A stretch of DNA of 61,147 nucleotides from an uncultured Thermoanaerobaculia bacterium (GCA_964573125.1 CAZNIX010000001.1:1-61147); one strand, 5' to 3'; numbered from the stretch's first letter, positions 1 to 43,490 are shown. Numbers and translations are program-made. The notes: generated by a model from the letters alone, not told the origin.

Positions 1-3000
1 CCCGCCGGCGCCCCGCCGGCCGGCGGCGCCGCGCCGGCGGCGCGCGCCGGCTGGATCGCGCGCCTGATCGCGGTCTCGGCGACGAACCCGTGGCTGACCG
101 TGCTGTTCGTGGCGGCGCTCGCGGTGTGGGGCTGGTTCGCGCTGGTGCGCTCGCCGCTCGACGCGATCCCGGACCTCTCCGACGTGCAGGTGATCGTCTT
201 CACCGAGTGGCCGGGCCAGAGCCCGGACATCATCGAGGACCAGGTCACCTACCCGATCGCGGCGGCGCTGTTGGCGGCGCCGCGGGTGGCCTACGTGCGC
301 GGGCAGTCGATGTTCGGGATGTCGTTTCTCTACGTGATCTTCGACGACGGCACGGACCTGTACTGGGCGCGCTCGCGAGTGCTCGAGTACCTCGACGAGG
401 CGCGGGCGCGGCTGCCCGCGGGGGTGACGCCGACGCTCGGTCCGGACGCCACCGGCGTCGGCTGGGTCTACCAGTACGCGCTGATCGACCGCAGCGGCCG
501 GCTCGACCTCCAGGAGCTGCGCAGCCTCCAGGACTGGAACCTCCGCTACGCGCTGGAGAGCGTGCCCGGCGTCGCCGAGGTGGCCTCGGTGGGCGGCTTC
601 GTCAAGGAGTACCAGATCGCGGTCGACCCGGCGCGGCTGGAGGCGTTCGGGGTCACGGTCCAGGAGCTGGCGCGGGCGGTGCGCGAGTCCAACCGCGAGG
701 TCGGCGGCCAGGTGCTCGAGCTGGCCGAGCACGAGGTGATGGTGCGCGGCCGGGGCTGGATCGAGAGCCGGCGCGACCTCGAGCTGGTGGCGCTGCGCGC
801 GAGCGAGCGCGGCGTGGCGGTGCGGATCGGCGACGTCGCCGAGGTGCGGCTGGGCCCGGCGCCGCGGCGGGGCTTCGCCGACCTCGACGGCGAGGGCGAG
901 GCGGTCGGCGGCATCGTGGTCATGCGCTACGGCGAGAACGCGCTGGCGGTGATCGACGCCGTCGAGGAGCGGCTCGCGGAGGTCCGGGCGAGCCTGCCCG
1001 AGGGGGTCGAGCTGGTCGTCACCTACGACCGCTCGGGGCTGATCCGGGAGTCGATCGCCACGCTCACCCACACGCTGATCGAGGAGATGCTGGTGGTCTC
1101 GCTGGTCATCTTCCTCTTCCTGCTCCACGCCCGCAGCTCGCTGGTCGTGATCGTCACCCTGCCGCTCGCGGTGCTGCTCTCGTTCATCCCGATGTCGTTC
1201 CAGGGGCTGACCGCGAACATCATGTCGCTCGGCGGCATCGCGGTCGCGATCGGGGCGATGGTCGACGCCGCGATCATCCTGATCGAAAACGTCCACAAGC
1301 GGCTCGAGCAGTGGCAGGCCGGCGGCCGGCGCGGGGAGCGGCGGGGGGTGATCGTCGCGGCGATGCAGGAGGTCGGGCCGTCGCTGTTCTTCTCGCTGCT
1401 GGTGATCACGGTGTCGTTTCTGCCGGTGTTCACGCTCACCGGGGTCGAGGGGCGGCTGTTCCGGCCGCTCGCGTTCACCAAGACCTACTCGATGGGCTTC
1501 GCCGCGCTGCTCGCGGTGACGCTGACCCCGGCGCTCGCGGCGCTCTTCATCCGCGGCCGGATCCGGCGCGAGGAGGCCAACCCGCTCAACCGCTGGCTGA
1601 TCCGGCTCTACACGCCGGTCGTGCGCTTCGTGGTGCGCCGGCGCTGGCCGGTGGTCGCGGCGGCGGCGCTCGCGGTCGCCGCGACGGTGCCGGCGTTTCT
1701 CGCGCTCGAGAGCGAGTTCATGCCGCCGCTCCATGAGGGGGCGATCCTCTACATGCCGACCGCGCCGCCCGGGATGGCGTCGAGCGAGGCCGTGCGCGTG
1801 CTCCAGGACATGGACCGCAAGCTGCGCGCGTTCCCCGAGGTGGTGTCGGTGTTCGGCAAGATGGGCCGCGCCGAGACCGCGACCGACCCGGCGCCGATCG
1901 GCATGGTCGAGACCGTGATCGTGCTCGAGCCGCGGGAGGAGTGGCGGGAGGGGCTGACCTGGGACGGGCTGATCGCCGAGATGGACGCCGCGCTCTCCTA
2001 CCCCGGCATGCCCAACATCTGGTGGATGCCGATCCAGACCCGCACCGAGATGCTCTCGACCGGCATCCGCGCGCCGCTCGGGGTCAAGGTGTTCGGCGAC
2101 GACCTCGCGGTGGTCGAGCGCGCGGCGGTCGAGATCGAGGGCGTGGTCGCGGCCATCGCGGGCACGCGCAGCGCGTTCGCCGACCGCTCGACCGGCGGCT
2201 TCTACCTCGACGTTGAGGTCGACCGCGAGGCGGCGGCGCGCTACGGGGTGCGCATCGCCGACGTCCACGACGTGGTCGCGACCGCGATCGGCGGGCTCGC
2301 GATCGACGAGACCGTCGAGGGGCGGGAGCGCTACCCGATCGCGGTGCGCTACGCCCGCGGCTTCCGCGAGGACCCCCGCTGGCTCGAGCGCGTCTTGGTC
2401 GCCACCCCCTCGGGCGCCCAGGTGCCGCTGCGCCAGGTGGCGGCGCTGACGTTCGCGACCGGGCCGCCGATGATCCGCAGCGAGGACGGGCGCCTCGTCG
2501 GCTACGTCTTCATCGACCCCGGCGAGCGCCCGCTCGCGGCCTACGTCGAGGAGGCGCGCCGGGCGGTCGCCGCGCGGGTGGCGCTGCCCGCCGGCGTGCG
2601 CATCGAGTGGGCCGGGCAGTTCCGCCACTACGAGAGCGCCAAGGCGCGGCTCAAGATCGTCGTGCCGGTGACGCTGTTCCTGATCGCGCTCCTGCTCTAC
2701 CTCAACACCCGCTCGGTGGTCGAGGTCGGCATCGTGCTGCTCGCGGTGCCGTTCTCGCTGATCGGCGCGGTGTGGCTGCTCTGGCTGCTCGACTACCACC
2801 TGAGCGTCGCGGTCTGGGTCGGCCTGATCGCGCTCGCCGGGCTCGACGCCGAGACCGGGGTCGTGATGCTGCTCTACTTGACGCTCGCCTGGCGGCGGCG
2901 CCGCGAGGAGGGGCGGCTCCGGAACTTCGACGACCTGCGCGAGGCGATCGTCGAGGGCGCGGCGCAGCGCATCCGCCCCAAGCTGATGACCGTGCTCACG

Positions 3001-3207
3001 CTCCTGCTCGGCCTCCTGCCGGTGATGTGGTCCGCCGGCACCGGCGCCGACGTCATGAAGCGGATCGCCGCGCCGATCGTCGGCGGCATCCTCACCTCGT
3101 TCCTCCTCGAGCTGACCGTCTACCCGGCGGTCTTCGCGCTCTGGAAACGGCGGGGGTTGCAGGAGGCTTCGGCCGTTCTCGGGGCAGCCGAAGAGCCGGC
3201 GGCTTGA
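1..3207 (+). CDS. cusA: CusA-type heavy-metal (Cu/Ag) efflux RND inner-membrane pump; 5' end runs off the window
   Basis: The frame of ORF 100..3207 stays open back to nt 1. The upstream residues (..GWIARLIAVSATNPWLTVLF..) already look like CusA TM1, so the GTG at 100 is probably internal. RND hallmarks are present (LDAIPDLSDVQVIV, two large periplasmic loops, 12-TM layout). The three CusA methionine-site contexts are also present: EGAILYMPT, DPAPIGMVET, RTEMLSTGI. Confidence 0.9.
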   Translation, partial: PAGAPPAGGAAPAARAGWIARLIAVSATNPWLTVLFVAALAVWGWFALVRSPLDAIPDLSDVQVIVFTEWPGQSPDIIEDQVTYPIAAALLAAPRVAYVRGQSMFGMSFLYVIFDDGTDLYWARSRVLEYLDEARARLPAGVTPTLGPDATGVGWVYQYALIDRSGRLDLQELRSLQDWNLRYALESVPGVAEVASVGGFVKEYQIAVDPARLEAFGVTVQELARAVRESNREVGGQVLELAEHEVMVRGRGWIESRRDLELVALRASERGVAVRIGDVAEVRLGPAPRRGFADLDGEGEAVGGIVVMRYGENALAVIDAVEERLAEVRASLPEGVELVVTYDRSGLIRESIATLTHTLIEEMLVVSLVIFLFLLHARSSLVVIVTLPLAVLLSFIPMSFQGLTANIMSLGGIAVAIGAMVDAAIILIENVHKRLEQWQAGGRRGERRGVIVAAMQEVGPSLFFSLLVITVSFLPVFTLTGVEGRLFRPLAFTKTYSMGFAALLAVTLTPALAALFIRGRIRREEANPLNRWLIRLYTPVVRFVVRRRWPVVAAAALAVAATVPAFLALESEFMPPLHEGAILYMPTAPPGMASSEAVRVLQDMDRKLRAFPEVVSVFGKMGRAETATDPAPIGMVETVIVLEPREEWREGLTWDGLIAEMDAALSYPGMPNIWWMPIQTRTEMLSTGIRAPLGVKVFGDDLAVVERAAVEIEGVVAAIAGTRSAFADRSTGGFYLDVEVDREAAARYGVRIADVHDVVATAIGGLAIDETVEGRERYPIAVRYARGFREDPRWLERVLVATPSGAQVPLRQVAALTFATGPPMIRSEDGRLVGYVFIDPGERPLAAYVEEARRAVAARVALPAGVRIEWAGQFRHYESAKARLKIVVPVTLFLIALLLYLNTRSVVEVGIVLLAVPFSLIGAVWLLWLLDYHLSVAVWVGLIALAGLDAETGVVMLLYLTLAWRRRREEGRLRNFDDLREAIVEGAAQRIRPKLMTVLTLLLGLLPVMWSAGTGADVMKRIAAPIVGGILTSFLLELTVYPAVFALWKRRGLQEASAVLGAAEEPAA

Positions 3208-3250
3208 CCCCGGCCGGCGCCGGCTCGTCGATCAAGGGCTCCGGGGCCGC

Positions 3251-4402
3251 TCAGAGCTTGCCGCCGAGAGGCCCGTCCTTCGCCTCGTCGCCCAGGGCCG
3301 GCTCGTAGCGCGTGCTTCGACCTCCGCCGGGCAACCGGCGCAGGGCTCCCGTCCGCAGAAGGTCGGCCAGATCGCGGCTCGCCGTCGCCCTCGAGGCACC
3401 GGTGATCGCGACGTACTTCCTGGCGGAGATCCCGCCCTCGAAGCCCTCGGGGCCGGCCCGGAACATGCGCGCCAGCGCCTTGCCCTGGCGCTGGTTCACC
3501 CGATCGCCGAAGCGGCGCCAAAACCGTGCCTTCTCGAGGACGAAGGTGATGGTCGCCCGGGCTCGGAGCTGGGCCTCGAGGACCGTCTCGACGAAATAGC
3601 CGACCCAGTTCGTGACGTCGAGCTCGCCACGGCTCGCCGAGGCCAAGGCCTGGTAGTACCTCTTGCGCTTCGCCTCGATCGCCATCGAGAGGCTGAGCAG
3701 AACCGGACGCCCGAGCTCCTGGCACAAAGCGGTCTCGGAGATCGCGCGGCCGATCCGTCCGTTGCCGTCCGCAAACGGATGGATGCACTCGAAGTGAAGA
3801 TGGGCGACCGCCGCGCGCACGGGACCCGGCAGGTCGCCGGTCTCGCCTCTCGGTGCCGAGCCGTTGAACCACCTGAGGAAGCGCGCCATCTCCCTCGGCA
3901 CGTCGGTCGCCGGCGGCGCCTCGAAGTGCACGACCTCGCGGCCGATGGGGCCGGAGACGACCTGGATCGCGTCATCGCGCCAGGTGCCGACCGGGATGCG
4001 CCGGCGCAGATCGCCCTCGGCGATCACCATGTGATGCCAGTCGAAGAGTCGCCTCGCCGTCAGAGGCTCGCGGAAGCGCTCCCGCACCGAGATCATGAGC
4101 GCGGCGATCCCGTCGGCGCGCGGGTCGGCGACGGGCTCCGGCGTCCGGTTGAGCCGCAGCCGGTTCCGAATCGAGGACCGCACGTCGCCCCGATCGAGAT
4201 CCTCGCCCTCGATCGAGGAGGTCGTGATCGCCTCGGACACCATGAGGTCGATCAAGGCCTCCGTCTGCTCTTCGTCGCCGAGTTGGGCGACGCTCCCTTT
4301 GAGCGCATTCGCCTCGGCGGCGTAGCGATAGAGCGCGCCGTGTACGCCCTGGAGGTCGAAGCGGAACCGGGGCCAGCCCTCTCGTGCCCAGATGTACGTC
4401 AT
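3251..4402 (-). CDS. Fic family protein (AMPylase-type) with C-terminal winged-helix-like tail
   Basis: ORF 3251..4435. The likely start is ATG 4402 (MTYIWAREGWPRF, the typical Fic N-terminal IW..WP motif). The canonical Fic motif HPFADGNGRIGRA is present. The C-terminal ARKYVAITGASRATASRDLADL looks like an HTH. Confidence 0.9.
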   Translation of the reverse strand: MTYIWAREGWPRFRFDLQGVHGALYRYAAEANALKGSVAQLGDEEQTEALIDLMVSEAITTSSIEGEDLDRGDVRSSIRNRLRLNRTPEPVADPRADGIAALMISVRERFREPLTARRLFDWHHMVIAEGDLRRRIPVGTWRDDAIQVVSGPIGREVVHFEAPPATDVPREMARFLRWFNGSAPRGETGDLPGPVRAAVAHLHFECIHPFADGNGRIGRAISETALCQELGRPVLLSLSMAIEAKRKRYYQALASASRGELDVTNWVGYFVETVLEAQLRARATITFVLEKARFWRRFGDRVNQRQGKALARMFRAGPEGFEGGISARKYVAITGASRATASRDLADLLRTGALRRLPGGGRSTRYEPALGDEAKDGPLGGKL

Positions 4403-12996: not shown

Positions 12997-13073
12997 GCAC
13001 CCGTAGCTCAACTGGATAGAGCATCTGACTACGGATCAGAAGGTTTGGGGTTCGAATCCCTACGGGTGCACCA
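12997..13073 (+). tRNA. tRNA-Arg: tRNA-Arg, anticodon ACG, CCA encoded
   Basis: The cloverleaf can be read by eye. The acceptor GCACCCG pairs with CGGGTGC. D arm: GCTC..GAGC. Anticodon stem TCTGA/TCAGA with loop CTACGGA (anticodon ACG). T arm: TGGGG-TTCGAAT-CCCTA. Discriminator A plus CCA follow. Confidence 0.95.
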
Positions 13074-13346
13074 ATAACTCCAATCAGATCAAGCGGTTAG
13101 AGACCGTTAGCACTTCGCGGAGTGCTGACGGTCGGTCTGTCGTTGCTCTATCGTTGCTGGGAAGCCAGCGGTAGGGGTCGGGGCAAGAGTGGCTCGGGCC
13201 GGAAGTGACGCGGTCTCAGTGGGTTGCGGGAGATCGCCGGCGATGGCGATTTAGCGCTCCTTCAACGTGGCATTGTCCCAGGGCGTCTCACCCGGTATCA
13301 TTTCAGCGGCGGCGCAGGCGCCGGATCGGCGAAACAGCCTGGCGTT

Positions 13347-13385
13347 GGGGATAGAGCATCTGACCAGCGATCAGAAGGTCTAGAC
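13347..13385 (+). other. Degenerate partial copy of the tRNA-Arg D-arm/anticodon-arm segment (tRNA remnant)
   Basis: GGGATAGAGCATCTGACCAGCGATCAGAAGGTCT matches tRNA positions 13012-13046 (TGGATAGAGCATCTGACTACGGATCAGAAGGTTT) at most positions. No acceptor or T arm can be folded around it. Confidence 0.6.
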
Positions 13386-13835
13386 CCCGCGGGAGGCAGA
13401 GGACCCAGCAAACTGGCGATGAGGTACCGTGTAGGCGCGGTGAGTACTCTCGCGGCGCCTCCACCAGGGTACGCCGAGGTCTTGACGTCGAAGCCGACGG
13501 CGAGGAAGGGCACGAGGGACTAGCTCGTGAGGGCTCGATGCCAGCCGGCAGATGGTGTACCGTCCTGGCTCTCCCTCGCCAACTCCGACAGCGGAGGTCT
13601 TGTGATGGCGGGTCTGGAAACCGTCTAACCCAAGAGACCGACCGCGATCTCGCCAACTGACAAGACGCCGGATCGTCAGACCAACACCCGGTCAGGCCGC
13701 CGCGTGGCCGCCTGACTCGTAGACGACCCTTGGGAAGCGGCACGCCCTGGGTGGCCACTCTTGCGGAGTACCGTGTAGGATTGGGCGAGCACCAAACTGA
13801 GTAGCACGAGCCCTCTCATCAGCCCGAGGTAAGGC

Positions 13836-14423
13836 ATGCCCCGAAAAGAGGTTTCGCCTGGAACGCCGATCGAGCCGTACAGGCACGAGGAAGAGGAAGC
13901 TCCCAATGTCATCGCTGGGCCTGTGCCCCAAAGCGACAGAAACGTCTCAGACGACAGACCTACTCCGCTAGCTTCCTCCCTAGAGCTGGCGCATCTTCAA
14001 CAGGAGGCGGATCACTATTTCACGGCAGAAGTACAACAGGAGCAGCGTGCGAGCTGGCTACTTGCTCTGTCTCTCGGATATCTCGCCATTCTGCACCAAT
14101 CTACCGACCCAAACTCGCCCTCGCTCTCACTCTTCCGACAGAGTCTCTGGCACACCCTCGGCATTCTTGGCCTTGTCGGATCCATGCTCCTAGCCGTAGT
14201 CGCAATCTGGCCGCTCCACGGCGCAAATGGGAAGCCGGTAAGCCCCTTCTGGCGCCCCGGGACTCAACCACAAACGCACGCTGTCACCCTGGAGGTGATC
14301 CGGCGGCACTACTGCAGCCACCGGTACCGAGCAGAACTCAAGGCCCGCAGGGTCGCCTGGGCCCTCATCCTACTAGTAGCGGGTGCTCTCTGTTCCATTG
14401 CAGGTTTCACGCTAGGCTCCTAG
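13836..14423 (+). CDS. Hypothetical 3-TM membrane protein with acidic/disordered N-terminus
   Basis: 195 aa; the ATG is preceded by GAGGTAAGG. Three hydrophobic helices: WLLALSLGYLAILH, LGILGLVGSMLLAVVAIW, VAWALILLVAGALCSIAGFTL. It sits in the lower-G+C islet, convergent with the STAND gene (27-nt gap). Confidence 0.55.
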   Translation: MPRKEVSPGTPIEPYRHEEEEAPNVIAGPVPQSDRNVSDDRPTPLASSLELAHLQQEADHYFTAEVQQEQRASWLLALSLGYLAILHQSTDPNSPSLSLFRQSLWHTLGILGLVGSMLLAVVAIWPLHGANGKPVSPFWRPGTQPQTHAVTLEVIRRHYCSHRYRAELKARRVAWALILLVAGALCSIAGFTLGS

Positions 14424-14450
14424 CGGCCTGTTGTTGTCTCCAGCCTCCCC

Positions 14451-17400
14451 TCAGATATCAATCTTGAACCTGGTTCGGAGCGATTCTGCGATGCGAACGC
14501 CTTCTCGATTGTCTACGTCAAAATCCAGAATCTTACGGACCAGGGTCCCGCACTGTCTAGCATAGTCAACATAGGAGTCATCAGACTCCGCGAATCTCTC
14601 CTCGGCTAGATCAAACAAGCTGCGCGCGTACTTCATCATCACGAAGACATTGGACCGATCTGCAGCATGAGCCTTGCTGAACTCAGGCAGGGCCGACGCG
14701 TTGTCACCAATACCCAAGAAGAACAAGCCGTAAAGCAGGTGAAACTGCGCCCGATCCGCGCCGGATCGAATCTTGGCCTTGCTCAAGCGTTTGAGGGCTT
14801 CGCTGGCCCTTTCGACCCCGTCCCTCTTGATCGTTAGAGCGGCGTAGGCGCGCACCGCCTCAGGCCCCTTGTCATCCCGCAGCACGGACTCGATGATCGG
14901 CTCCGCGAGGTCAATCCGATCCTCGAAAAGGTAGAGCAACCCCAGCTGGGTCCTGATAGCGTTGATCGGCTTCCTGCTCCTCACCTCGACCTCGTAACAG
15001 AATCGCTCTCCGTCCACCAGCACCGAGATCGCGTCCTCAACCTCGCCGAGTGAGGCATATGTTCGGCCAAGATAAAAATAGGGCCAGGGGTTCCGCTCGG
15101 TGAGTTGTACCGCCCTCTTAAAGACCTTCTCCGCGGTCCCATAATCGCGCTTCCTAAGAGCTAGCCGGCCTTCGACGACGAGAAGACTTACATCCTCAAC
15201 GCCGGAATCGCGAGCGATTCTAACGAGCTCACCAATTGCCTCGTCCTGAAACTGAGTCAGAGCAGTCCTCGCCAGCTCCGCGAGGAGGAGGGTGTCTCGA
15301 CGGTCCTGAGAAAACACCTGCTGAGCGAGAGGCAGAGCTATGTGAAAGCGTCCGCACTTTGCTTCGACCTGAGCTGAGAGTCGTAAGAGTTCACGGGTCT
15401 CCCGGCGGGAAAGCAATGGTCGCAGAATTCCCGCAGCCTCCTCATATCGTTGCTGCTCCATAAATGCCTTAACCGTGGCGACTGCGCCATCAATCAATCG
15501 GGTGGGCGATCTAACTGTGAGACCCACCAGCAATGCGTGGTACTCGGCCTCAACAAGACTGGCCAGATCGGGGGCATCAGCGCTGCTGAGGGCTTCATAC
15601 GCGCTAGCCGCCTCTTTGTGAAAGTTTTCGACAAGCTCGGATGAAAGAAGCTCTGCACTGAAATAGTCCCTCAGCACTGCAGCCAACTCGATTCGATCCG
15701 GGCCATTAGGCTCGACCGCCCCAAGTGCGACTAGATTTCTGAGGGGCTCCGCTACCGGAAAACCGACAACCATGGGGATAACACCACGAGGCAGAGATGT
15801 CCTAGCCAAGTTTAGGATCCGAAGGAGCACCTTCTGCTCGTCATTCAGCTGCATGCCCTCAACAAGCCGCGAAACGAAATTTAGGACGAACCCCTTCCTA
15901 TGCCTCAATTCCTCAAGAAGATCCGATAACCCCTGCTCATAAATGGCGTCTGCAGCCAATTCGATGGCCTTGGGATGGCCGCCCAAACGCTCTACTATCT
16001 CCTCCTTCAGAGCCCCAGAGACGTCCTTGCCAGAGAAGCCAACGCGGCGAAGCTGAGCATCGAGAACCCGAACGCCGAACTCTGATCTCTTCCCATCGAG
16101 ACCACGAATCAGCAGCCGCGTTCGTACGGCTTGATCAGCCAGCTCCAGAGGGAGCTGATGCCGTGTCTCGAAGATGACTTTTGTGCCAACCTCCGCCGCG
16201 ACCTCAACTAGGGCATTGAGAACGGCCGGACTCGCGGGGTCTCGCCATCGGCTCCACTCCAGGAGGTGGTCGGCTCGCTCGATAAGTAGCACGGAACAAT
16301 TGGCAACGACACGGCGGAACTCTGCCGCGTTCACGATGTCCAACGGCTCCGACTGCAAATCACCACGGGCATCACCGCGCTGCATAATAGCGGCTAACAA
16401 ATACTCTAAGGAGGATGTTTCAGTGAGCCGGACATGCCTAGGGATCTTCATCCCGGCCTCAGAGAAAGCCCGTCTGAGTGCCGAACTCTTCCCTATCTCC
16501 GCGAGGCCGTGAACATCCAGGACTGATAGAGCCGGATGGTCAAGAAACTCAAGAATGCGGCGGACCTCTTCATCTCGGTCGATAACATTTCTGGCATCGA
16601 TCGAGGGTCGCCTACTTGGCAGAGCCTCTGTCATTGCATGTCGCCGACAGGCGACGAGATACGCGGCCAGCTCTACGAGCACATCAGGCTTGCTGGCCTG
16701 GCCAGCGCCAATGCGGGTAGTCAGGTCGGCTTGGCAAAAGGCTGCTAAGTCGGACTCCAAAGAAGTCAGGTCAGTGAGGGTCTGGAGCTGGCAATCGTCA
16801 CCGAGGACATCCCACAGATCCTCGGCGGGTGCGCCGCGTTGCTCCGTCTCCAGTAAGCTCGTGAGCTTCCTTTGCTGAAGAGGACCAGGCCCCAGCGTTT
16901 CGAGGATCTCTCGCAGCGTCGTGGAGCGCTCCGCTGATGAATCCGTAGCAGCACGGAGCCGAGCTACCTCTGCCGAGACGTTGAGGGAGGAGGTACCTTG
17001 ATAGACCACCTCTGCGAGTCGTACAAGGCGGAAGGCCTGCCGAGGTTTCGCTGTACTCACCTCAACGGCTACCACCTCAAGATCTAGATCGACAACGAGA
17101 ATCGAGTCGACCGCGGGCAGGCCGCGCGGGAAGGTAGGATGGAACCAGTCGGCTGTTCTCGAATCGACGACGGCTCCAAAGCGCGAGCCGCCCCACTGCG
17201 CGTCATTGCAGAGGACAACAGCGTGCCGGTTCCTGACCTGCTGTTCAATGAAACTGGAGAACTGCTCAGGCCGATGGTCGTAAGCGATGGCAGCGGCTAG
17301 GCTGTACTGATGCCTCACTCCTTCGAACTGGAGCGCATCGGAGCAGATCAGTGGCAATACTTTGACCGACTCGTTATTAAGTGTAACGTCGATTGGCTGC

Positions 17401-17948
17401 GGCTTTGGTATAGCTGGATCTGGAGAAAAGAGGTTGGCTGTCTCATACGGGGAGCGTGTGGTTTTTGGAACGAGAGTCGCCCTACCCGACCGGATGAGTG
17501 CAAGGACGTTGGTGGCTCGATATTTTGAACATATTCTGGCAACGTTCTTTTTGTCGATGCCGAGTTGGCTGTAGGTGCGAAGCGCAGATTGAGTTCGTAG
17601 TGGTGTATGGGATCCCGCCAGAACTGTACCACCCGTTCGAGCCGACCAATCCGCAATGACTTCAAGGGCGTCTACAGGCACGGCCCCCTCAGGGAAGAGG
17701 ACGAGATCGGGCTCCAGGGGGCTCACCCAGTCCAGAACACCACCGAGTCTGGCCTTCTGCCACTCCGTGTAGCGCTGCTGACAGTGTATCTGCAGGCTGA
17801 GAACGTCCAGTCCCCTCGCGGCGAGTTTCGCGAGACTCGCGGCATCAGGGGCGTCCGGGAGAAACGGCTCCTGAAGGAAGGCCGTTCTTCCAGCTTCGAG
17901 GGCCGGATGCGAGCGGAGCTGGCACAGAGCGATGCGGATTCTTCTCAT
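14451..17948 (-). CDS. C-N hydrolase (nitrilase superfamily) - STAND P-loop NTPase - TPR repeat fusion protein; candidate NLR/Avs-like defence sensor
   Basis: This is a single 1165-aa ORF with markedly lower G+C than its flanks. aa 1-300 carry the nitrilase contexts IALCQ..DLVLFPE (E87), LVPKTTRSPYE (K162) and VLPLICSDALQFE (C202). Walker A is GLAEIGKSS (aa 481-489; nt 16485-16508) and a Walker B-like SVLLIERAD lies at aa 552-560. The C-terminal ~330 aa are TPR-like helices (PWPYFYLGRTYASLGEVEDAISVL, FHLLYGLFFLGIGDNASALPEF). Confidence 0.85.
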   Translation of the reverse strand: MRRIRIALCQLRSHPALEAGRTAFLQEPFLPDAPDAASLAKLAARGLDVLSLQIHCQQRYTEWQKARLGGVLDWVSPLEPDLVLFPEGAVPVDALEVIADWSARTGGTVLAGSHTPLRTQSALRTYSQLGIDKKNVARICSKYRATNVLALIRSGRATLVPKTTRSPYETANLFSPDPAIPKPQPIDVTLNNESVKVLPLICSDALQFEGVRHQYSLAAAIAYDHRPEQFSSFIEQQVRNRHAVVLCNDAQWGGSRFGAVVDSRTADWFHPTFPRGLPAVDSILVVDLDLEVVAVEVSTAKPRQAFRLVRLAEVVYQGTSSLNVSAEVARLRAATDSSAERSTTLREILETLGPGPLQQRKLTSLLETEQRGAPAEDLWDVLGDDCQLQTLTDLTSLESDLAAFCQADLTTRIGAGQASKPDVLVELAAYLVACRRHAMTEALPSRRPSIDARNVIDRDEEVRRILEFLDHPALSVLDVHGLAEIGKSSALRRAFSEAGMKIPRHVRLTETSSLEYLLAAIMQRGDARGDLQSEPLDIVNAAEFRRVVANCSVLLIERADHLLEWSRWRDPASPAVLNALVEVAAEVGTKVIFETRHQLPLELADQAVRTRLLIRGLDGKRSEFGVRVLDAQLRRVGFSGKDVSGALKEEIVERLGGHPKAIELAADAIYEQGLSDLLEELRHRKGFVLNFVSRLVEGMQLNDEQKVLLRILNLARTSLPRGVIPMVVGFPVAEPLRNLVALGAVEPNGPDRIELAAVLRDYFSAELLSSELVENFHKEAASAYEALSSADAPDLASLVEAEYHALLVGLTVRSPTRLIDGAVATVKAFMEQQRYEEAAGILRPLLSRRETRELLRLSAQVEAKCGRFHIALPLAQQVFSQDRRDTLLLAELARTALTQFQDEAIGELVRIARDSGVEDVSLLVVEGRLALRKRDYGTAEKVFKRAVQLTERNPWPYFYLGRTYASLGEVEDAISVLVDGERFCYEVEVRSRKPINAIRTQLGLLYLFEDRIDLAEPIIESVLRDDKGPEAVRAYAALTIKRDGVERASEALKRLSKAKIRSGADRAQFHLLYGLFFLGIGDNASALPEFSKAHAADRSNVFVMMKYARSLFDLAEERFAESDDSYVDYARQCGTLVRKILDFDVDNREGVRIAESLRTRFKIDI

Positions 17949-18107
17949 TCCTGATCAGCATGTGTGGAGAGCGTCAACCACCTGTATCGCCGGAGTTCCC
18001 GCGAGCCCAGCGGTTCCTGGGAGGATCGCCATTCTGTGAGCGTAGACGGGGACGGGCGCTGGCGCAACCTTATGCCCAATTAGCAAAGGGCGTAAGAGTC
18101 CGCCCTC

Positions 18108-18734
18108 TCATGAGCAACCACGACCCGGGGCGGGCCGGAGCAGGAGCAGCGCCAGGAGGCCCGCTACGAGCAGGCCGAGATCCTGGGTCACCCCCAGAGT
18201 GAAAGCGGCGGTGCCGCCGATGGCGGCCCAGAGGATCGGGATCACCAGCAGATAGCGCGACCGGCCGGGCTGCGTCCAGGCCAGGAGGCCGAGCGTGAAG
18301 ATGGTCGTCGGGCAGGGCACACCGAGCACCGGTAGCTCTCGCAGGGGGTGGCCGGACAGGAGGCCCCACGCGGGATAGACCAGCAGCGCGAAGCCGATCA
18401 TCGAAGCGCCCAGCGCACCGCGCCACGAGCCCGTGGCGAAGCGGATCCGCCGCCGCCACGCCGCCACCAGAAAGAGGATGGCCTGAGCGACGAACATCCC
18501 CCCGAAGATCGTCGCGGCGGGGTTGATCGGGCGGAAGAAGAGCCAGTGGTAGAAAACGCCAGTCCAGGCCCACAGCAGAGCGAGGAGCGCCGCCGCCGGC
18601 ATGCTCCGACCGCGAGCCGCGAGCACGACCGCCGAGAGCGCGAGAACGTAGAGAAGCACCTGCGCCGGCCACACGGCGTCGTTGTAGTCGGCGAAGACGG
18701 CGAAGAACTGCTCGCGTGTGAAGGGAAGTCCCAA
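18108..18734 (-). CDS. DUF6064-like integral membrane protein
   Basis: 208 aa, multi-TM. The N-terminal PFTREQFFAVFADYNDAVWPAQ is the motif I associate with the DUF6064 family. G+C is high, like the core genome. Confidence 0.6.
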   Translation of the reverse strand: MGLPFTREQFFAVFADYNDAVWPAQVLLYVLALSAVVLAARGRSMPAAALLALLWAWTGVFYHWLFFRPINPAATIFGGMFVAQAILFLVAAWRRRIRFATGSWRGALGASMIGFALLVYPAWGLLSGHPLRELPVLGVPCPTTIFTLGLLAWTQPGRSRYLLVIPILWAAIGGTAAFTLGVTQDLGLLVAGLLALLLLRPAPGRGCS

Positions 18735-19886: not shown

Positions 19887-20105
19887 TCAGCCCGCCGCCT
19901 TCCGCCGCCCGCCGCCGGACTTCGCCGCCTTCGGCGCCTCCGCCTCGCCCTCCCCCTCCTCCGGCAGCCGGAAGCCCACGATGCCCCGGCCGAAGTCCTC
20001 CACCTCCAACCCCCGCGCCTTGTCGAGCGCGAGCGCCCGGTGGGCGAAGAACCGTTTCGCATCCACCAGCCGCGACCGGCCGTTCAGGTCAGCACGGAGC
20101 CTGAG
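19887..20105 (-). pseudogene. 3' fragment (C-terminal ~70 codons) of a paralogue of the 21433..21858 gene
   Basis: LRLRADLNGRSRLVDAKRFFAHRALALDKARGLEVEDFGRGIVGFRLPEEG aligns with LKLRAQPNGRSRLVDAKRFFDHRGLAVDKARGLEVEDFGGGVVGFRLPEEG of the full copy. The N-terminal half is missing. Confidence 0.6.
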
Positions 20106-20216
20106 CGCACCCCTTACCGCTCTCGACAGCCTGTGGGTGGTCAGCCGGCTTGCCGACAAGCAGGTTCTCTGGCCCGTGCATCTTCGTAGGGGCCGAGTTG
20201 TATGGGACGGCTCCGC

Positions 20217-21432: not shown

Positions 21433-21858
21433 TCAGCTCGCCTTCCGGCGCCGCCGACCTACTGGAGCGCTCGGCGGTGCCTGCGGCTCCGCCTCCGCCC
21501 CCTCCTCCGGCAGCCGGAACCCCACCACCCCGCCGCCGAAGTCCTCGACCTCCAGCCCCCGCGCCTTGTCGACGGCCAGCCCCCGGTGGTCGAAAAAGCG
21601 CTTCGCATCCACCAGCCGCGACCGGCCGTTCGGCTGCGCCCGCAGCTTCAGCACGCCGCGCCCGCCCTCCGGCGCCGGCCGGATGCCGACCACCCGGCTC
21701 TTGGCGTTGTAGCCGATCTGGACGGCCTCGACGCCCTCGCCGAGCATGGCGACGGCGGCCTCGGTGAGGACGAGCTGGCCGGCCTTGCGGACGGTCACCC
21801 GCGGAGTGGTGGAGTTGACGGTGGCGGTGCCCTCGAAGAACTCGAACTCCGTGCTCAT
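21433..21858 (-). CDS. Hypothetical 141-aa protein (full-length copy of the duplicated gene)
   Basis: ORF 21433..21912. ATG 21858 is preceded by AAGGGAGA. The protein starts MSTEFEFFEGTATVNSTTPRVTVRKAGQLVL and has a basic C-terminal tail. I recognise no family. Confidence 0.6.
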   Translation of the reverse strand: MSTEFEFFEGTATVNSTTPRVTVRKAGQLVLTEAAVAMLGEGVEAVQIGYNAKSRVVGIRPAPEGGRGVLKLRAQPNGRSRLVDAKRFFDHRGLAVDKARGLEVEDFGGGVVGFRLPEEGAEAEPQAPPSAPVGRRRRKAS

Positions 21859-22030: not shown

Positions 22031-22323
22031 ATGACCACGCTGCCCGCTGGCCCGGCCTTCCTCCCGCCCCTGGCGCCGGCGGCGCGCGAGCTGATGGAGG
22101 TGCTCTGGAGTGCGTGCCGTCCCCTCAGCACCCGCGCCGTGCACGACGCGGTGGCGAGGCGGTTCTCCGCGCGCACCGGGCGGGCGATCCAGGCCACGGC
22201 GACGCTGCTGACCAGGCTCATGGCGCGGGGCTGGGTCGTCGGTGAGAAGCGGGCGGGATGCGGTGCGTCTACGCGCCGAAACGCGCTGCGCCCCAGGCGC
22301 TTTCGCCTCCCTCGTTCCGTTGA
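22031..22323 (+). pseudogene. BlaI/MecI/CopY-type winged-helix repressor, short and apparently frame-disrupted
   Basis: The N-terminus ARELMEVLWSACRPLSTRAVHDAV....ATATLLTRLMARGWVVGEKRAG fits the penicillinase-repressor wHTH. The expected ...R.vY.P continuation (MRCVYAPKRAAPQA, stop 22321-22323) is in the -1 frame from about 22256. The listed 292-aa ORF continues only as Arg/Pro-rich read-through that overlaps radC. Confidence 0.4.
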
Positions 22324-22348
22324 CACCCGGCCCGGTCCCGCCTTACTG
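22320..22348 (+). promoter_or_regulatory. Second copy of the TTGACA promoter-like motif, upstream of radC
   Basis: TTGACACCCGGCCCGGTCCCGCCTTACTG lies 62 nt before the radC ATG 22410 and is similar to the motif at 21994. Confidence 0.3.
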
Positions 22349-22409
22349 GTTAGGGTCTGTCCATCCCCGCGGTGCACCGGCCCCCCAGGGCCGGCCCCGG
22401 AGAGGCCCG

Positions 22410-23127
22410 ATGCGGCGACGCCGACCCAGCCCACCCCGCCCCTGCACCCAGCCCAGCCTCATCGCCGAGATCCCCCACGACGAGCGCCCCCGGGAGCGCC
22501 TGCTGCGCAACGGCGCGCAGGCGCTCTCCGACGCCGAGCTCATCGCCATCCTCCTCAAGGGCGGGCGCAAGGGCGCGTCGGTCCTCGACCTCAGCCGCGA
22601 GCTCCTCTTCCAGTCCGGCGGGCTGCGCGGCCTCGCCAACGCCTGCACGAAGAGCCTGCGCCGCAACGGTGTCGGCGAGGTCAAGATCGCCACCCTCCTC
22701 GCCGCGGTCGAGATCGCCTGCCGCATGGCGGCGGCGGCCGTGCCCGCCCGCGAGCCGCTGTCGAAGCCGGCGGAGGTCTGCCGCTACATCGACCTGCGCT
22801 ACGGCCGGTCCGGCCAGGAAGTCATGGGGGCGCTCTACGTGTGCGCCCGCCACCGACTGATCGGCGAGCGCGAGCTGTACCGCGGCACCCTCCACCGGGC
22901 GGCGGTTGAGCCGCGGGCAGTGCTGCGCGAGGGGCTGCTGCTCGGCGCCGCCGGGTTGGTGCTATTCCACACCCACCCCTCGGGCGACCCGGCGCCGTCC
23001 CGTGAGGATCTGCTGTTCACGCGGCGGATGCACCGGGCCGGCGGTCGTCGGGATCGAGCTGGTCGACCACCTGGTGGTCGGGGTGGGCGGGGCATGGGTG
23101 AGCGTCAAGGAGCGGGGCGGGTGGTGA
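22410..23127 (+). pseudogene. radC: RadC-like JAB/MPN domain protein, interrupted by a +1 frameshift near 23041
   Basis: PHDERPRERLLRNGAQALSDAELIAILL (HhH region) and LVLFHTHPSGDPAPSREDLLFTRRM (JAMM motif) lie in the frame of ORF 22242..23318. The conserved C-terminus VVGIELVDHLVVGVGGAWVSVKERGGW* is in the frame of ORF 22906..23127. The switch is in GCCGGCGGTCGTC at 23037-23049. Confidence 0.75.
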
Positions 23128-23318
23128 CCAACCCCCTCGACGACCTGATCGCCGAGATCGGCCGCGTCGGCGAACCGGAGACGTTGACCTGGCTCGAGGG
23201 CGAGGTCGAGCGGTGGAGCGAATGGGCGGCGAGCATGCGCGGGCTGGACTGCGTTTGGATCGACCAGATTGCGCACGCGGTCAACGAGCGCCGAGCCGAG
23301 CTGCGGGGTGGGTCGTGA
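23124..23318 (+). CDS. Hypothetical 64-aa protein, translationally coupled between radC and the ComM-like gene
   Basis: GTG 23124 overlaps the radC stop (GTGA), and its own stop overlaps the next GTG (GTGA at 23315-23318). Sequence: VTNPLDDLIAEIGRVGEPETLTWLEGEVERWSEWAASM.. I recognise no family. Confidence 0.4.
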   Translation: MTNPLDDLIAEIGRVGEPETLTWLEGEVERWSEWAASMRGLDCVWIDQIAHAVNERRAELRGGS

Positions 23319-24112
23319 CCGACCTCGGCGAGATCTGCGGCCAGGAGACGGCCCGGCGGGCGCTCGAGGTCGCCGCGGCAGGCGGCCACAGCCTGCTGCT
23401 GGTCGGCCCGGCGGGGTCGGGGAAGTCGATGCTGGCGCGGTGTCTGCCAGGGCTGCTGCCGCCGGACACGCCGCGGCCGCTGCGGGTGCCGGGGCTCGGC
23501 CTCACGCCGAGAGGCGTGGCCCGTGAGCTCACCCTCGCCGCCGGCGGGACGCTGATCCTCGACGACCTGCCGGCGCTGCGGCCGGCGACCCTGCGGGCGC
23601 TGGCCGAGGCGCTCGACGGCGCGCCCGTCCAGCTCGTCGCGACGATGCGCCCCTGCCCGTGCGGTCACGCCGGGGACCACCGCGCAGACTGCGCGTGCCC
23701 GCCGGGCGTGATCCGCCGCTGGCGGGCGCGGGTCGGTGTCCCGCTCGCCGAGCGGTTCGATCTGTTCGTCGCCGTGCCGGCGGTAACGATCGGCGAGCTG
23801 CACCGCGGCGCCGGCGAGCCCTCTGCCCGCGTCGCCGGCCGGGTCGCCGCCGCGCGGGCGGTCCAGACCCGCCGCGGCGGCCTCAACGCGGCGATGGGGC
23901 CGGGCGACGCCCGACGCTGCCGGCTCGACAACCCCGGGCGGAAGTTGCTGGACGCCGCCTTCGAGCGGCTGGGGCTTTCCGCCGGCGCCCTCCACCGGGT
24001 GCTGCGGGTGGCGCGCACCCTCGCCGACATGGCGGGGGCGGAGCGGCTCTCCGCCGGCCACGTCGCCGAGGCCATCCAGTGCAGACCGGAAGTCGAGGGG
24101 GCGCGGTGGTGA
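23315..24112 (+). CDS. ComM/YifB-like Mg-chelatase-type AAA+ ATPase, lacking the N-terminal domain and internally shortened
   Basis: GQETARRALEVAAAGGHSLLLVGPAGSGKSMLARCLPGLLPP (Walker A), TLILDDLP (Walker B), MRPCPCGH and LSAGALHRVLRVARTLADMAGAERLSAGHVAEAIQCR match the ComM/YifB order. The ~190-aa N-terminal domain is absent, as are ~40-60 aa between Walker A and the CPCG motif. Confidence 0.75.
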   Translation: MTDLGEICGQETARRALEVAAAGGHSLLLVGPAGSGKSMLARCLPGLLPPDTPRPLRVPGLGLTPRGVARELTLAAGGTLILDDLPALRPATLRALAEALDGAPVQLVATMRPCPCGHAGDHRADCACPPGVIRRWRARVGVPLAERFDLFVAVPAVTIGELHRGAGEPSARVAGRVAAARAVQTRRGGLNAAMGPGDARRCRLDNPGRKLLDAAFERLGLSAGALHRVLRVARTLADMAGAERLSAGHVAEAIQCRPEVEGARW

Positions 24113-32670: not shown

Positions 32671-33639
32671 TCAGGACACCTTTTCGATCAACCACCGAAC
32701 TAACCCGGCCTCAACAACCATGGCCGCGAGCTCCTCCGGCCCGACGAGGGTAACCCGAGGATCCTCAAGCTTTGCCGGTTCGCCAGAGTGGTAGACGTAG
32801 AACATCCGCCCATAGAGATCAGCCCGCTCGCCCAGTTTGGCAGTGTAGTCGGCCAACTCGGCCGAGGTCGTCCTGGACTTGATCTGGACGAACGCCCGCT
32901 CACCTGTGCTGGGCAAGACTAGATCGATGTCGAGCGTGTCCTGGGACTTGCCGACAACTCCCACGCGCCGCCAGCCACTTGCGGAGAAGACCAGATCAAC
33001 CAAGAGCTCGAAGTCCTTCGGGGTGAGCATCCGCATCAGGGGCAGAATCGACGCCTCCATCTCCTGTGAGGCAAGGAGCGCCCGCTCCACCTCAGGCATC
33101 TTCTGACCGTTGATCCTCCGAACGACGTACTCTGAGACATCAACGTCGCATGACGTCCCACGGTAGGCCGCCAACTTGGTCACGGCACCCGAAAGCCGAT
33201 CCTTGGTAAGGGGAATGCCGTCGAGGTCGGTGGATCGCCAACCCCCGCTGATCCGCCGGAAGACGCCGTCGCCGTCAGGATGCGGTTCAGGGGGACTCGC
33301 GTCGAGCATGCCCCAGTGCAGGCGCTCGTTCATGAAGGTGATCCACAGCGTCGTACCTGCGTCCTCGAAGAACAGCCGCAGCTCGTTTGTGTAACGTGTC
33401 GCAGTGCCCTTGTCCCGCCCTTCGGCGACGAAGGATCTCGCGAGCTCGTCCCACTGCTCCGACTGACATAGCGCAAACCGACTTGGTGCCGCCGAGCCGA
33501 AACCGATGCGGATGATCCCGTTCTCAAGACATTCCTTCTCCCAGCTACCGCCCTCGCCGAGCTTGATGTACCGGACGCGACTTGGCTGGATCACGGTCGC
33601 CTCGGCTTCCCGTCCGCGGTTGTCCGCGGTCAACCCCAC
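32671..33639 (-). CDS. Mrr-type (PD-(D/E)xK) restriction endonuclease domain protein with uncharacterised N-terminal domain
   Basis: The C-terminal DFELLVDLVFSASGWRRVGVVGKSQDTLDIDLVLPSTGERAFVQIKSRT has the Mrr_cat layout (FE.LV..L...G......D.GiD....-x-vQ.K). I do not recognise the N-terminal ~190 aa (RYIKLGEGGSWEKECLENGIIRIGF...). Confidence 0.75.
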   Translation of the reverse strand: MGLTADNRGREAEATVIQPSRVRYIKLGEGGSWEKECLENGIIRIGFGSAAPSRFALCQSEQWDELARSFVAEGRDKGTATRYTNELRLFFEDAGTTLWITFMNERLHWGMLDASPPEPHPDGDGVFRRISGGWRSTDLDGIPLTKDRLSGAVTKLAAYRGTSCDVDVSEYVVRRINGQKMPEVERALLASQEMEASILPLMRMLTPKDFELLVDLVFSASGWRRVGVVGKSQDTLDIDLVLPSTGERAFVQIKSRTTSAELADYTAKLGERADLYGRMFYVYHSGEPAKLEDPRVTLVGPEELAAMVVEAGLVRWLIEKVS

Positions 33640-36000: not shown

Positions 36001-37200
36001 CTATTGTCGGCTAACGAGCAGCAACATTAAAAACCAAACGAGAAAGATCATACTGGCGACCCAATGAACAAACAGGTCGTTAATCGAGCTCTTCGAGTCG
36101 TGTCTACGGATCGCTCGCAAGAAGATCGCAGGCCTTCTGTCGCTCCCGCTGCCGATGTCGCTGTAGGTCCCAAATAGGTCGTAGGAGCCCTGCCCTCGGA
36201 GTTTTGGTGCCCATCCGAGACGTTTGATGTAGCTGACCTTGTAGATATCTTCGCGACGGCGCTGCGGCTTCACAAGGAGTATCTCGCGTTTCGCGAATGC
36301 GAGAAATGGCGAGTTGGTCTGGTTGGACGAATTGAAGACCAAGAAGCAATCGCCTTGCTTCTCGCTGGCGTCGATACGCACGACCTTCTGGAACCTGCAT
36401 CCACGAACTGCCACTTGACTCTTTCCTGCCGTGAGCCCGCTAGTCTCGGCCCTGATGCGAGCAAATTCGCTGGAGGTTATACTACGGTAATATGACCGAA
36501 GCATGCGGACATACGAGAGCGGTCGCCACACAGGTATACCCAGAACGTTGACAAAGGTGAAGTCCTCCGACCAGTTCCAGATAATAAGTGGAATGCTGAA
36601 GTCATCATAGCCTATGCTGAAGCCCAGAGCATTGGCGTAGAATAGGCGAACATTGTGTTGGAAGAAGAAGGCTAGAACAAAGAACGTGCCGGCCGTATAG
36701 AGGCGGCCGGCACGGAGCAGGAAGTCCCCGCTCTCATTCAGCAAAAGGCGCGACGTGATGATAAACCCAGCCATAATGAAGAACATCAGAAGCAGGCGCC
36801 TGACCGAGGGCTTGGCAACAAAATAGAATGGCTGCACTACCAGGATGAGACCGAGGCCCAGGAGTAGAAAGTCGCTGCTCGGCCTGATGCTTAGACTACG
36901 TCCGAGCGCAGACTTCTCACGTCCCCGAGACCTCTCGACAGGCTTGGTATACTGTGAGTGGAGCCACCCGCTCTCGCCGGTGCTATTAACTCGGACACTA
37001 TACCATGCGCCGCTCTGACCAACCAGTTCTACCTGAGTACCGGGTGGAAGCGTGCGAATCACCGAACAATTGACTGTGTTTGGACAGCGCCGGAGGTTCA
37101 GCCGCGTCGTGGTCGTCACTTGATCCGCCCGAGCGGCAGAAGAGATCGTCAACGTGACGATTGTGAGGAGCAAAGCGGCTCGACACTCTCGCTTACTCAT
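36001..37200 (-). CDS. Signal peptide + SH3b domain + multi-TM + uncharacterised C-terminal domain protein
   Basis: ORF 36001..37227, ATG 37200 (MSKRECRAALLLTIVTLTISSAARA). The SH3b-like segment is TTTRLNLRRCPNTVNCSVIRTLPPGTQVELVGQSGAWYSVRVNSTGESGWLHSQY. Four to five TM helices follow, then a ~190-aa soluble region and a terminal TM. Low G+C. Confidence 0.6.
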   Translation of the reverse strand: MSKRECRAALLLTIVTLTISSAARADQVTTTTRLNLRRCPNTVNCSVIRTLPPGTQVELVGQSGAWYSVRVNSTGESGWLHSQYTKPVERSRGREKSALGRSLSIRPSSDFLLLGLGLILVVQPFYFVAKPSVRRLLLMFFIMAGFIITSRLLLNESGDFLLRAGRLYTAGTFFVLAFFFQHNVRLFYANALGFSIGYDDFSIPLIIWNWSEDFTFVNVLGIPVWRPLSYVRMLRSYYRSITSSEFARIRAETSGLTAGKSQVAVRGCRFQKVVRIDASEKQGDCFLVFNSSNQTNSPFLAFAKREILLVKPQRRREDIYKVSYIKRLGWAPKLRGQGSYDLFGTYSDIGSGSDRRPAIFLRAIRRHDSKSSINDLFVHWVASMIFLVWFLMLLLVSRQ

Positions 37201-37483
37201 CACGGCCCTCCGAGTCCTGGCGCCCATCGGCGCCGCGGCTCATCGGCGCGCGAAGCGTGACCGGTGCCAACGTGCCAATCACGAGAGCAGGGGCTAGGGT
37301 AACCAGTGGAACCATTCTTCGCGGCCGGACCCAGGTTCGCCAGCTAGCTTTCGGTAAGTTAGTGCTGGTCATCTTGGTGCCCTCGAAGAGCTCCGTCACA
37401 CTCCGTCACCTAGACGCGCCGTTCTCGGGCGCAATGGCCGGCCTTCCCTGCTCCTTACGATCGAGGCACGATATGGAGCAATC

Positions 37484-43099: not shown

Positions 43100-43177
43100 G
43101 GCTCGCTTACACCTCCCCGAAGGGTGAGATATTTGAAGTGCGGCTGCTTTATTTGACGTGACTTCTGGACTCGCGGC

Positions 43178-43280
43178 TCTGGCAAGGAACGCTAAGACAC
43201 TGTCGCCTGCGCGGGCCACAGCCACCGTCGCGGGGTCACTCGTCCACACTCTCGGAACACTGCTCCGGAGACTGTCAAGA
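43178..43280 (+). repeat. Copy B of the interspersed repeat (3'-truncated)
   Basis: CTCTGGCAAGGAACGCTAAGACACTGTCGCCTGCGCGGGCCACAGCCACCGTCGC...CTCGGAACACTGCTCCGGAGACTG. It shares its 5' part with C and its central part with A, and lies 79 nt upstream of (antisense to) the FG-GAP/SGNH gene start. Confidence 0.7.
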
Positions 43281-43490
43281 AAGCCGCCGGGCTGACACGC
43301 AGCCATGCCCGGGTCGTCGCTCGACGGCACCGCCACCGGCGGCGGAAACAGCCGCCGCGAAGATAGTGACAACCAATGACAAGACTGCGATGAAGGAACC
43401 TAGGTCCATTGACTAGCCTGTAGAAATGAGGGAGTCCTAGCCCTAGCTGCCTTTGCCCATCAGTCACGCCCCCTCGGGGCCTAGACTCGG

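Follow-up and report, generated by a model that had tools for sequence, protein, structure and literature searches.

A predicted DRT1-type nitrilase domain joined to a STAND NTPase and TPR array: a candidate anti-phage sensor in an uncultured Thermoanaerobaculia bacterium

Results

A 1165-residue fusion protein encoded in the window

The window analysed here is a stretch of 61,147 nucleotides from an uncultured Thermoanaerobaculia bacterium (GCA_964573125.1, CAZNIX010000001.1:1-61147), with positions counted from its first letter. On its minus strand lies a complete gene (14451–17948; ATG start, from the list of open reading frames (ORFs) and the translation) encoding a protein of 1165 amino acids (aa), in which a predicted N-terminal nitrilase, or C-N hydrolase, head of the DRT1 type is joined to a STAND nucleoside triphosphatase (NTPase) and a C-terminal TPR array. 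The protein aligns over its whole length with homologues of 1160–1190 aa, and the full-length homologues are 42–62% identical to it. The motifs quoted in an earlier note, which had been made from the DNA alone, were all found at the residues given there: IALCQ (aa 6–10), DLVLFPE (aa 81–87), LVPKTTRSPYE (aa 159–169) and LPLICSDALQ (aa 198–207) in the head, and the Walker A motif GLAEIGKSS (aa 481–489) and SVLLIERAD (aa 552–560) in the centre.

The N-terminal head is a predicted nitrilase domain of the DRT1 clade

The head comprises aa 1–322 (16983–17948, minus strand). Pfam PF00795 (CN_hydrolase), the profile with which the earlier note had proposed to compare aa 1–320, gave no match in the full protein at E ≤ 1, in aa 1–320 alone at E ≤ 10, or among 33 relatives scanned at E ≤ 1e-3, and neither phmmer nor a hidden Markov model (HMM) of 8 sequences found a nitrilase among the PDB sequences. 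Direct family assignment by Pfam, NCBIfam, phmmer and a small HMM thus failed. Since the standard libraries miss the head, its assignment had to draw on a modelled structure, a wider profile and the comparison of profiles with one another.

An AlphaFold2 (AF2) model of the head, built with 8 homologues, had a predicted local distance difference test score (pLDDT) of 68.7 and a predicted template modelling (TM) score of 0.75. When this model was searched with Foldseek, 105 PDB chains were matched at E ≤ 1e-3, with E down to 1.6e-8 and a probability of 1.00, and the top 50 PDB matches were all members of the nitrilase superfamily (TM 0.38–0.59). The structural matches include PH0642-type amidases, Nit2, D-carbamoylase, N-carbamoylputrescine amidohydrolase, NitFhit and NAD synthetase, an enzyme that carries a nitrilase-superfamily glutaminase domain. 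In the viral library (BFVD), the sole significant Foldseek match of the head was a CN hydrolase.

Profile comparisons pointed to one part of this superfamily. An HMM of 22 diverse N-domains gave a single significant match in the PDB, namely DRT1 (9yfd, E 1.9e-6). With hhalign, the N-domain profile was aligned to the nitrilase domains of five plasmid-encoded DRT1 proteins with a probability of 98.2% and an E value of 3.7e-14 over 229 columns, and CNDAQWGGS of the family was paired with ANTGVYGGS of DRT1 (an N-x-G-x-x-G-G-S motif); the alignment with the omega-amidase YafV of E. coli was weaker (E 4e-4, hhalign probability 34%). PADLOC (v2, whole protein, E ≤ 1) returned only the models RT_UG5-nitrilase (E 2e-5) and RTasNitrilase (E 9e-3), both over aa 66–256. 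By its predicted fold the head is a nitrilase-superfamily domain, and by profile comparison it belongs with the divergent nitrilase clade of the class 3 UG/Abi reverse transcriptases (RTs) (PMC9226505). PF00795 misses the head because it is divergent, not because it lies outside the nitrilase fold.

Four residues of the head, all encoded on the minus strand, are predicted to form a catalytic tetrad. E87, the predicted catalytic Glu in DLVLFPE (codon 17688–17690), was aligned to an invariant Glu of DRT1 (FSE/PE) and weakly to the 'WPE' motif of Lnt, and it was kept in 99 of the 100 N-domains ungapped at this position (105 aligned). K162, the predicted catalytic Lys (codon 17463–17465), was aligned to the Lys of 'QGK' in DRT1 and of 'YDK' in YafV, and E169, the predicted second Glu (codon 17442–17444), to another invariant Glu of DRT1 (TPDE); they were kept in 103 and 99 of 104 N-domains, respectively. 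C202, the predicted nucleophile (codon 17343–17345; 103/104), was aligned to C1116 of DRT1 (ICYD), which is the catalytic Cys of that protein (PMC13275509), and to the Cys of 'LPLVCYD' in YafV. All four residues sit on columns that do not vary among the five DRT1 nitrilase domains of the alignment, and E87, K162 and C202 are shared by all of 8 homologues at 34–62% identity. Q10, H14, E27, P28, H114, N248, G253 and R264, which are family-specific positions, were also kept across the 105 divergent N-domains. Given the near-invariance of the tetrad across relatives, the head is almost certainly catalytic, as far as four aligned and conserved residues can tell. The proposal of the earlier note that the N-domain is of the nitrilase superfamily, with its catalytic residues aligned, is therefore borne out by the structural model with Foldseek, by the HMM and by hhalign.

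A STAND NTPase centre and a TPR C-terminus

Behind the head, a segment predicted to be helical with conserved Cys, Trp and Asp (aa 323–450; 16599–16982, minus strand) forms a linker, and it accompanies the N-domain into some non-STAND architectures. The STAND NTPase core (aa 451–720; 15789–16598, minus strand) follows, containing the Walker A motif, the Walker B-like strand at aa 552–560, an 'ETR' strand at aa 590–598 and GGHP at aa 656–659. Across 57 family NTPase domains, G481, G486 and the Walker A lysine K487 (codon 16488–16490, minus strand) of GxxxxGK[ST] are invariant (57/57). The GHP part of GGHPxA, corresponding to the STAND GxP/'GLPL' motif, was kept at G657 in 53 of the 57 and at H658 and P659 in 56, and the family NTPase domains also show a Walker B strand of the form hhhhE[N/D] and an 'E[ST]R' strand.

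An AF2 model of aa 325–840 (pLDDT 71.6) was also searched with Foldseek. The top matches of the centre were 6mfv (E 1.7e-7), the tomato NLR NRC2, PAB2304 (2qen, E 8.4e-7), CED-4, Dark and the TIR-NLRs WRR4A, Roq1 and RPP1 of plants, and these STAND, NLR and apoptosome proteins, spanning E values from 1.7e-7 to 4e-5, ranked ahead of ORC/Cdc6. The region that matches STAND proteins includes a helical/winged-helix segment (aa 721–830; 15459–15788, minus strand) delimited from the AF2 secondary structure. A relative with the same head, P0142, passes the Pfam NB-ARC cut-off (23.9 vs 23.5).

The C-terminal TPR array (aa 831–1165; 14454–15458, minus strand), presumed to be the sensor, was detected by Pfam models above their cut-offs over aa 853–977: TPR_19 with 46.8 bits (cut-off 25, E 3.8e-12), TPR_14 with 40.4 (23.5, E 2.5e-10), TPR_16 with 33.0 (32.7) and TPR_2 with 27.5 (27). 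Weaker TPR matches extend to about aa 1116, and NCBIfam TPR families match the C-terminus too, with scores far under their cut-offs. Of the modules of the family, the TPR array is the most conserved when compared with the window protein, at a mean identity of 43%. From motifs and modelled structure, the protein has a STAND NTPase at its centre and a TPR domain at its C-terminus; this assignment, already made in the earlier note, is backed by the invariant Walker A motif, the GHP motif, the Foldseek matches and the Pfam TPR matches.

Size, architectures and distribution of the family

An exhaustive HMMER search with the N-domain profile of 1.84 billion representatives of 50%-identity clusters matched 567 cluster representatives at E ≤ 1e-3, 294 at E ≤ 1e-10 and 136 at E ≤ 1e-30. 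A word-index search had given only 7–8 relatives (a query with the N-domain alignment yielded 1, and a query without the TPR part yielded the same 8), and the idea of an ultra-rare family was rejected on the exhaustive count. At least 136 strong clusters, and up to 567, are thus labelled at best 'TPR repeat protein', their catalytic head being missed by Pfam and NCBIfam and weakly flagged by the RT-nitrilase models of PADLOC.

Architectures were counted in 156 proteins, made up of 150 among the matches listed and the relatives found earlier. The layout of the window protein, head–linker–NTPase–winged helix–TPR, was present in 52 of these 156 (median 1170 aa); about 69 were shorter than 950 aa, mostly because of contig truncation, and the remaining 34 were long proteins carrying the head on something else. 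Among the long others, a few have other NTPases with TPR (matches to AAA_16, NB-ARC and nSTAND3/6), and about 30, of 1000–1830 aa, have no Walker A motif and carry the head at the N-terminus, often together with the linker (P0058, P0085, P0105 and P0121, for example). GAF_2 matches were found in 16 of the 33 proteins of the Pfam-scanned set, and the P-loop-less head proteins are a second architecture, which may be gated by a small molecule. The occurrence of one head on different control modules is the behaviour expected of an effector domain. In one metagenomic relative (L036), the gene is split into a 737-aa ORF with head and NTPase (659–2872) and a 421-aa TPR ORF (2893–4158); a frameshift, decay into a pseudogene or a true two-gene form could each explain this.

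Metagenome-assembled genomes (MAGs) of Acidobacteriota, Vicinamibacterales and Planctomycetota contain full-length homologues, as do soil and sediment metagenomes. Plasmid or viral carriage was considered and rejected, as no homologue was found in PLSDB or on the viral contigs of IMG/VR.

The gene lies in a low-G+C islet next to a tRNA gene

A tRNA-Arg(acg) gene identified by ARAGORN (12997–13073, plus strand) forms the left edge of a low-G+C islet (13074–18100) that carries the gene. In the composition profiles, the G+C content falls from 0.73–0.80 in the flanks to 0.55–0.62 across 13000–18000 and then rises again to a right-hand neighbour that is host-like, a DUF6064 gene (18108–18734). The G+C content at third codon positions (GC3) is 0.62 in the gene and 0.62–0.65 in the islet, vs 0.87–0.99 in neighbouring genes (0.97–0.99 in the core genes upstream). 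ARAGORN and the composition thus agree with the description of the gene as the cargo of a low-G+C islet of about 5 kb directly 3' of tRNA-Arg.

No integrase or att repeat bounding the islet was found in the window, and the 3' end of the tRNA is not repeated anywhere in it. An islet bounded by integrase and att sites was therefore rejected, the sole trace being a 31-nt partial copy of tRNA-Arg, from the D-arm to the variable region (13349–13379, plus strand), detected as a direct repeat identical to 13014–13044 at 28 of 31 positions. It sits 335 bp downstream of the intact tRNA and may be the scar of an earlier insertion or rearrangement there.

Convergent with the STAND gene, the islet also contains an ORF of 195 aa (13836–14423, plus strand) with an acidic N-terminus and three hydrophobic segments, whose G+C content is as low as that of the STAND gene. 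This ORF has no Pfam or PADLOC match and no relative near the homologues of the STAND gene, and for these reasons a two-gene system with this three-transmembrane product as partner was rejected.

Further low-G+C patches, at 20–21, 25–26, 33–40 and 42–44 kb, give the window a mosaic composition between 13000 and 44000, and tRNA-Arg may border a larger variable region. Genes in this mosaic include RadC (22242–23318), overlapped by a truncated ComM/Mg-chelatase-like ORF (23213–24112), an SH3_3 protein (36001–37227) and a 1008-aa FG-GAP/GDSL-lipase/TcdB-like protein (40346–43372). A direct repeat of 163 nt with 83% identity was also observed (19949–20111 and 21495–21657, spacing 1546 bp), in a region of long overlapping ORFs that have no Pfam matches. 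A weak PDC-S02 match (32671–33639) was the sole sign of a known defence gene in the rest of the window.

Genomic context of the relatives

About 13 loci (labelled L0nn) were compared. Defence or toxin-antitoxin genes adjoin the family gene in 5 of them, and in none of the others, the window included. At L001, the neighbours are a type IIG restriction-modification enzyme (E 4e-155), a methyltransferase, an LmuB/mad3-like ATPase, a DpdF/GajB-like helicase of 1740 aa and a NERD helicase. On a Vicinamibacterales chromosome (L003, 2037–9490), IetA, IetS and a DISARM DrmMI-like methylase (1254 bits) are arranged in tandem directly upstream, making a compact defence island. An NmeDI-type endonuclease (L010), HsdS (L017), and HicA/HicB together with an HTH_17 protein (L008) are the neighbours at the other three. 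The gene of the closest relative (L011, 62% identity) lies between rsmE and prmA, not at a tRNA, and rlmL is the neighbour at L021. In an Acidobacteriota MAG (L002), the gene is surrounded by secreted repeat proteins and a low-G+C AAA_16 gene. The latter encodes an ATPase of 495 aa (13630–15117, minus strand), has a G+C content of 0.51 and adjoins the family gene (0.55) between flanks of 0.73–0.74; the two genes may have been acquired together.

Neither synteny nor a conserved metabolic partner was seen among the loci compared, and the gene was lower in G+C than its flanks at every locus where this was compared (the window, L002, L004, L021 and L024). The lack of synteny together with the low G+C agrees with a mobile conflict system made of a single gene. 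The gene appears to have been acquired horizontally, as had been suggested from the window, and the G+C content and GC3 of the islet and the low G+C relative to flanks in other hosts bear this out. The earlier note had also proposed to test whether homologues sit in defence islands or in syntenic housekeeping contexts: synteny is absent, defence genes stand beside several homologues, and the homologues at L011, L021 and L020 lie amid housekeeping genes.

Discussion

A probable conflict sensor with nitrilase output

Given the domains that its sequence predicts, we consider that the gene probably encodes a single-protein, NLR/Avs-like conflict sensor, most likely directed against phages, with a nitrilase as its output. 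STAND proteins oligomerise on ligand binding and activate N-terminal effectors by proximity, and nitrilase-superfamily enzymes need homo-oligomeric assembly for activity. In the mechanism that we propose, the TPR array would bind the trigger, and the STAND NTPase would turn binding into nucleotide-dependent oligomerisation, as STAND proteins generally do. Oligomerisation would gather the N-domains into an active Glu-Lys-Glu-Cys C-N hydrolase. By destroying or modifying an essential molecule that bears an amide or amine, this enzyme would arrest the infected cell. Assembly is expected to switch on the head because nitrilase enzymes need oligomers and because the DRT1 effector works as a tetramer, with the active site completed by a neighbouring protomer (PMC13275509).

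Several observations weigh against this interpretation. The Pfam CN_hydrolase and NCBIfam models miss the head, whose AF2 model is only of moderate confidence and whose Foldseek TM values are modest. The model of the centre is likewise of moderate confidence, and its Foldseek TM values are low (0.24–0.30), although such values are usual for a model of several domains. The best Pfam match of the NTPase, nSTAND6, is below its cut-off (E 7.9e-5; 23.2 bits, cut-off 27.7), with AAA_16 and ATPase_2 weaker still, and the acidic residue of Walker B, E557, is kept in only 35 of the 57 NTPase domains. No Avs or other STAND defence model was among the PADLOC matches. With regard to context, no known defence gene adjoins the gene in the window, several homologues are found amid housekeeping genes, and the sample of loci is small, its counts coming without a statistical background.

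The architecture and context do not separate phages from other invaders, and the gene might instead encode a conflict or programmed-death switch that responds to plasmids, other mobile elements, damage or kin signals. The occurrence of the head on GAF-containing proteins suggests small-molecule sensing in the wider family, and STAND-centred conflict systems have been tied to multicellular bacteria by Kaur et al. 2020 and 2021. The neighbours of the family are, however, mostly classical anti-phage or anti-DNA systems (restriction-modification, DISARM and IetAS), and the head is most closely related to a phage-defence effector, so we would give a switch that is not phage-specific a small chance only.

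Nitrilase-superfamily enzymes are mostly metabolic (PMC9226505), and the protein could accordingly be a housekeeping or regulatory enzyme, that is, a ligand-gated amidase or nitrilase metabolising or detoxifying a nitrile or amide, with the STAND and TPR parts as a MalT-like metabolic sensor. The homologues amid housekeeping genes and the want of an adjoining defence gene in the window would suit such a role. We think it quite unlikely, since the family is patchy across phyla with no synteny or metabolic partner, the G+C content of the gene is atypical in every host compared, and hhalign links the head specifically to the immune DRT1 clade, with a much higher probability than for metabolic nitrilases (98.2% vs 34%). 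Moreover, no DNA-binding output domain was found in the family by Pfam, nor in the window protein by NCBIfam.

That the head is non-hydrolytic, either an Lnt-like acyl-transferase or mainly a structural oligomerisation module, seems very improbable: the superfamily does include N-acyltransferases, the 'WPE' motif of Lnt is weakly matched and the nitrilase domains of DRT1 form a tetramer core (PMC13275509), but all four tetrad residues are near-invariant, the Lnt match is insignificant (E 1.8) and the window protein, unlike Lnt, has no membrane segments.

Beyond the conflict sensor favoured here for the window, we tentatively raise the possibility that the DRT1-type nitrilase is a portable immune effector, mounted on at least three unrelated kinds of controller, namely the RTs of DRT1, UG5 and UG29, STAND-TPR receptors and large P-loop-less proteins, many of them with GAF, and acting in each through assembly-triggered hydrolysis of the same essential amide-bearing molecule. 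The presence of the head on STAND-TPR and GAF proteins suggests that this effector is of general use and can be exchanged, and that it is not peculiar to RT systems. If the wider proposal were true, immunity would here use a chemistry unlike that of nucleases, NADases, proteases or pores, and the substrate would be most simply sought through the STAND version. Because co-expression of one trigger protein is enough to switch on STAND proteins, the STAND form may ease identification of the substrate and of the mode of growth arrest.

Comparison with known systems

The closest comparison is with DRT1 (UG1; PDB 9yfd), UG5 and UG29. In DRT1, as in other class 3 UG/Abi RT systems, a C-N hydrolase domain is the effector (PMC9226505, PMC13275509), and defence by DRT1 requires this nitrilase, which is dependent on assembly (PMC13275509, PMC9226505). 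The earlier note had supposed that no described defence system has an output of the amidase type; this was wrong, as DRT1/UG1, UG5 and UG29 carry nitrilase effectors. Nitrilases rank among the least understood outputs of prokaryotic immunity; they have little precedent in defence, and the substrate of DRT1 is not known (PMC13275509). The window protein shares with these systems a homologous nitrilase domain with aligned Glu-Lys-Glu-Cys residues and the N-x-G-x-x-G-G-S motif, and the fusion of a large sensor or regulator to it; RT-nitrilases were the sole defence models matched. An activity tied to oligomeric assembly, as in DRT1 (PMC13275509), would be a further likeness. The two differ in that the nitrilase is C-terminal in DRT1 and N-terminal in the window protein, that DRT1 is controlled by protein-primed DNA synthesis and filaments whereas the window protein would use a STAND NTPase and TPR, and that the C-terminal 'lid' tail of DRT1 has no established counterpart in the window protein. 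No RT family appeared in the Pfam, NCBIfam or PADLOC output for the window protein beyond the nitrilase part of the PADLOC models; given this and a remainder made of STAND and TPR, it is not a DRT system.

On plasmids of Vibrionaceae and Pseudoalteromonas, we also observed that a small ORF of 140–168 aa comes directly after each DRT1-type RT-nitrilase gene (L012, 4413–4835; L014, 4387–4839; L015, 4366–4872). The products at L012 and L015 have an N-terminal hydrophobic segment, the arrangement recalls the 'RT-nitrilase + TM' UG5-large system, and the L015 pair adjoins qatD.

With the canonical amidases (Nit2/omega-amidase YafV, PH0642 and D-carbamoylase), the head has in common the fold and the order and spacing of motifs, including the aligned YDK and LPLVCYD of YafV. 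It differs in an insertion of about 45 residues after strand 1, in which the conserved Q10, H14, E27 and P28 lie, in being too divergent for PF00795 or for HMM matches to nitrilases of the PDB, and in being fused to a receptor instead of free-standing. The centre has its best structural matches in the NTPase-plus-TPR proteins of the STAND-TPR or MalT type (P. horikoshii 6mfv and PAB2304 2qen), at an identity of about 17%; the PDB titles of these two name no nitrilase domain. MalT-type regulators output to DNA.

With Avs/AVAST and bNACHT proteins (Avs1–5, and the Avs families of PMC13581612), the window protein shares a single-gene layout of effector, STAND NTPase and repeat sensor, a patchy spread, with defence genes beside the gene at some loci, and an effector common to an unrelated defence system. 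It differs in its NTPase, for which nSTAND6, though below its cut-off, is the nearest Pfam family. Of the Avs/NLR-like layout that the earlier note had proposed, the tripartite architecture stands, while PADLOC assigns the protein to no named Avs or NLR family. Neither the word 'nitrilase' nor a nitrilase-STAND fusion was found in the main texts of three papers on STAND and conflict systems (Kaur et al. 2020 and 2021 and the 2026 STAND survey), and full-text literature searches found no mention of a nitrilase fused to STAND, NACHT or Avs. Nitrilase effectors being already known from DRT1, the fusion of that effector to STAND and TPR is apparently the new part, and the gene links two classes of defence system through a common, mechanistically unsolved effector.

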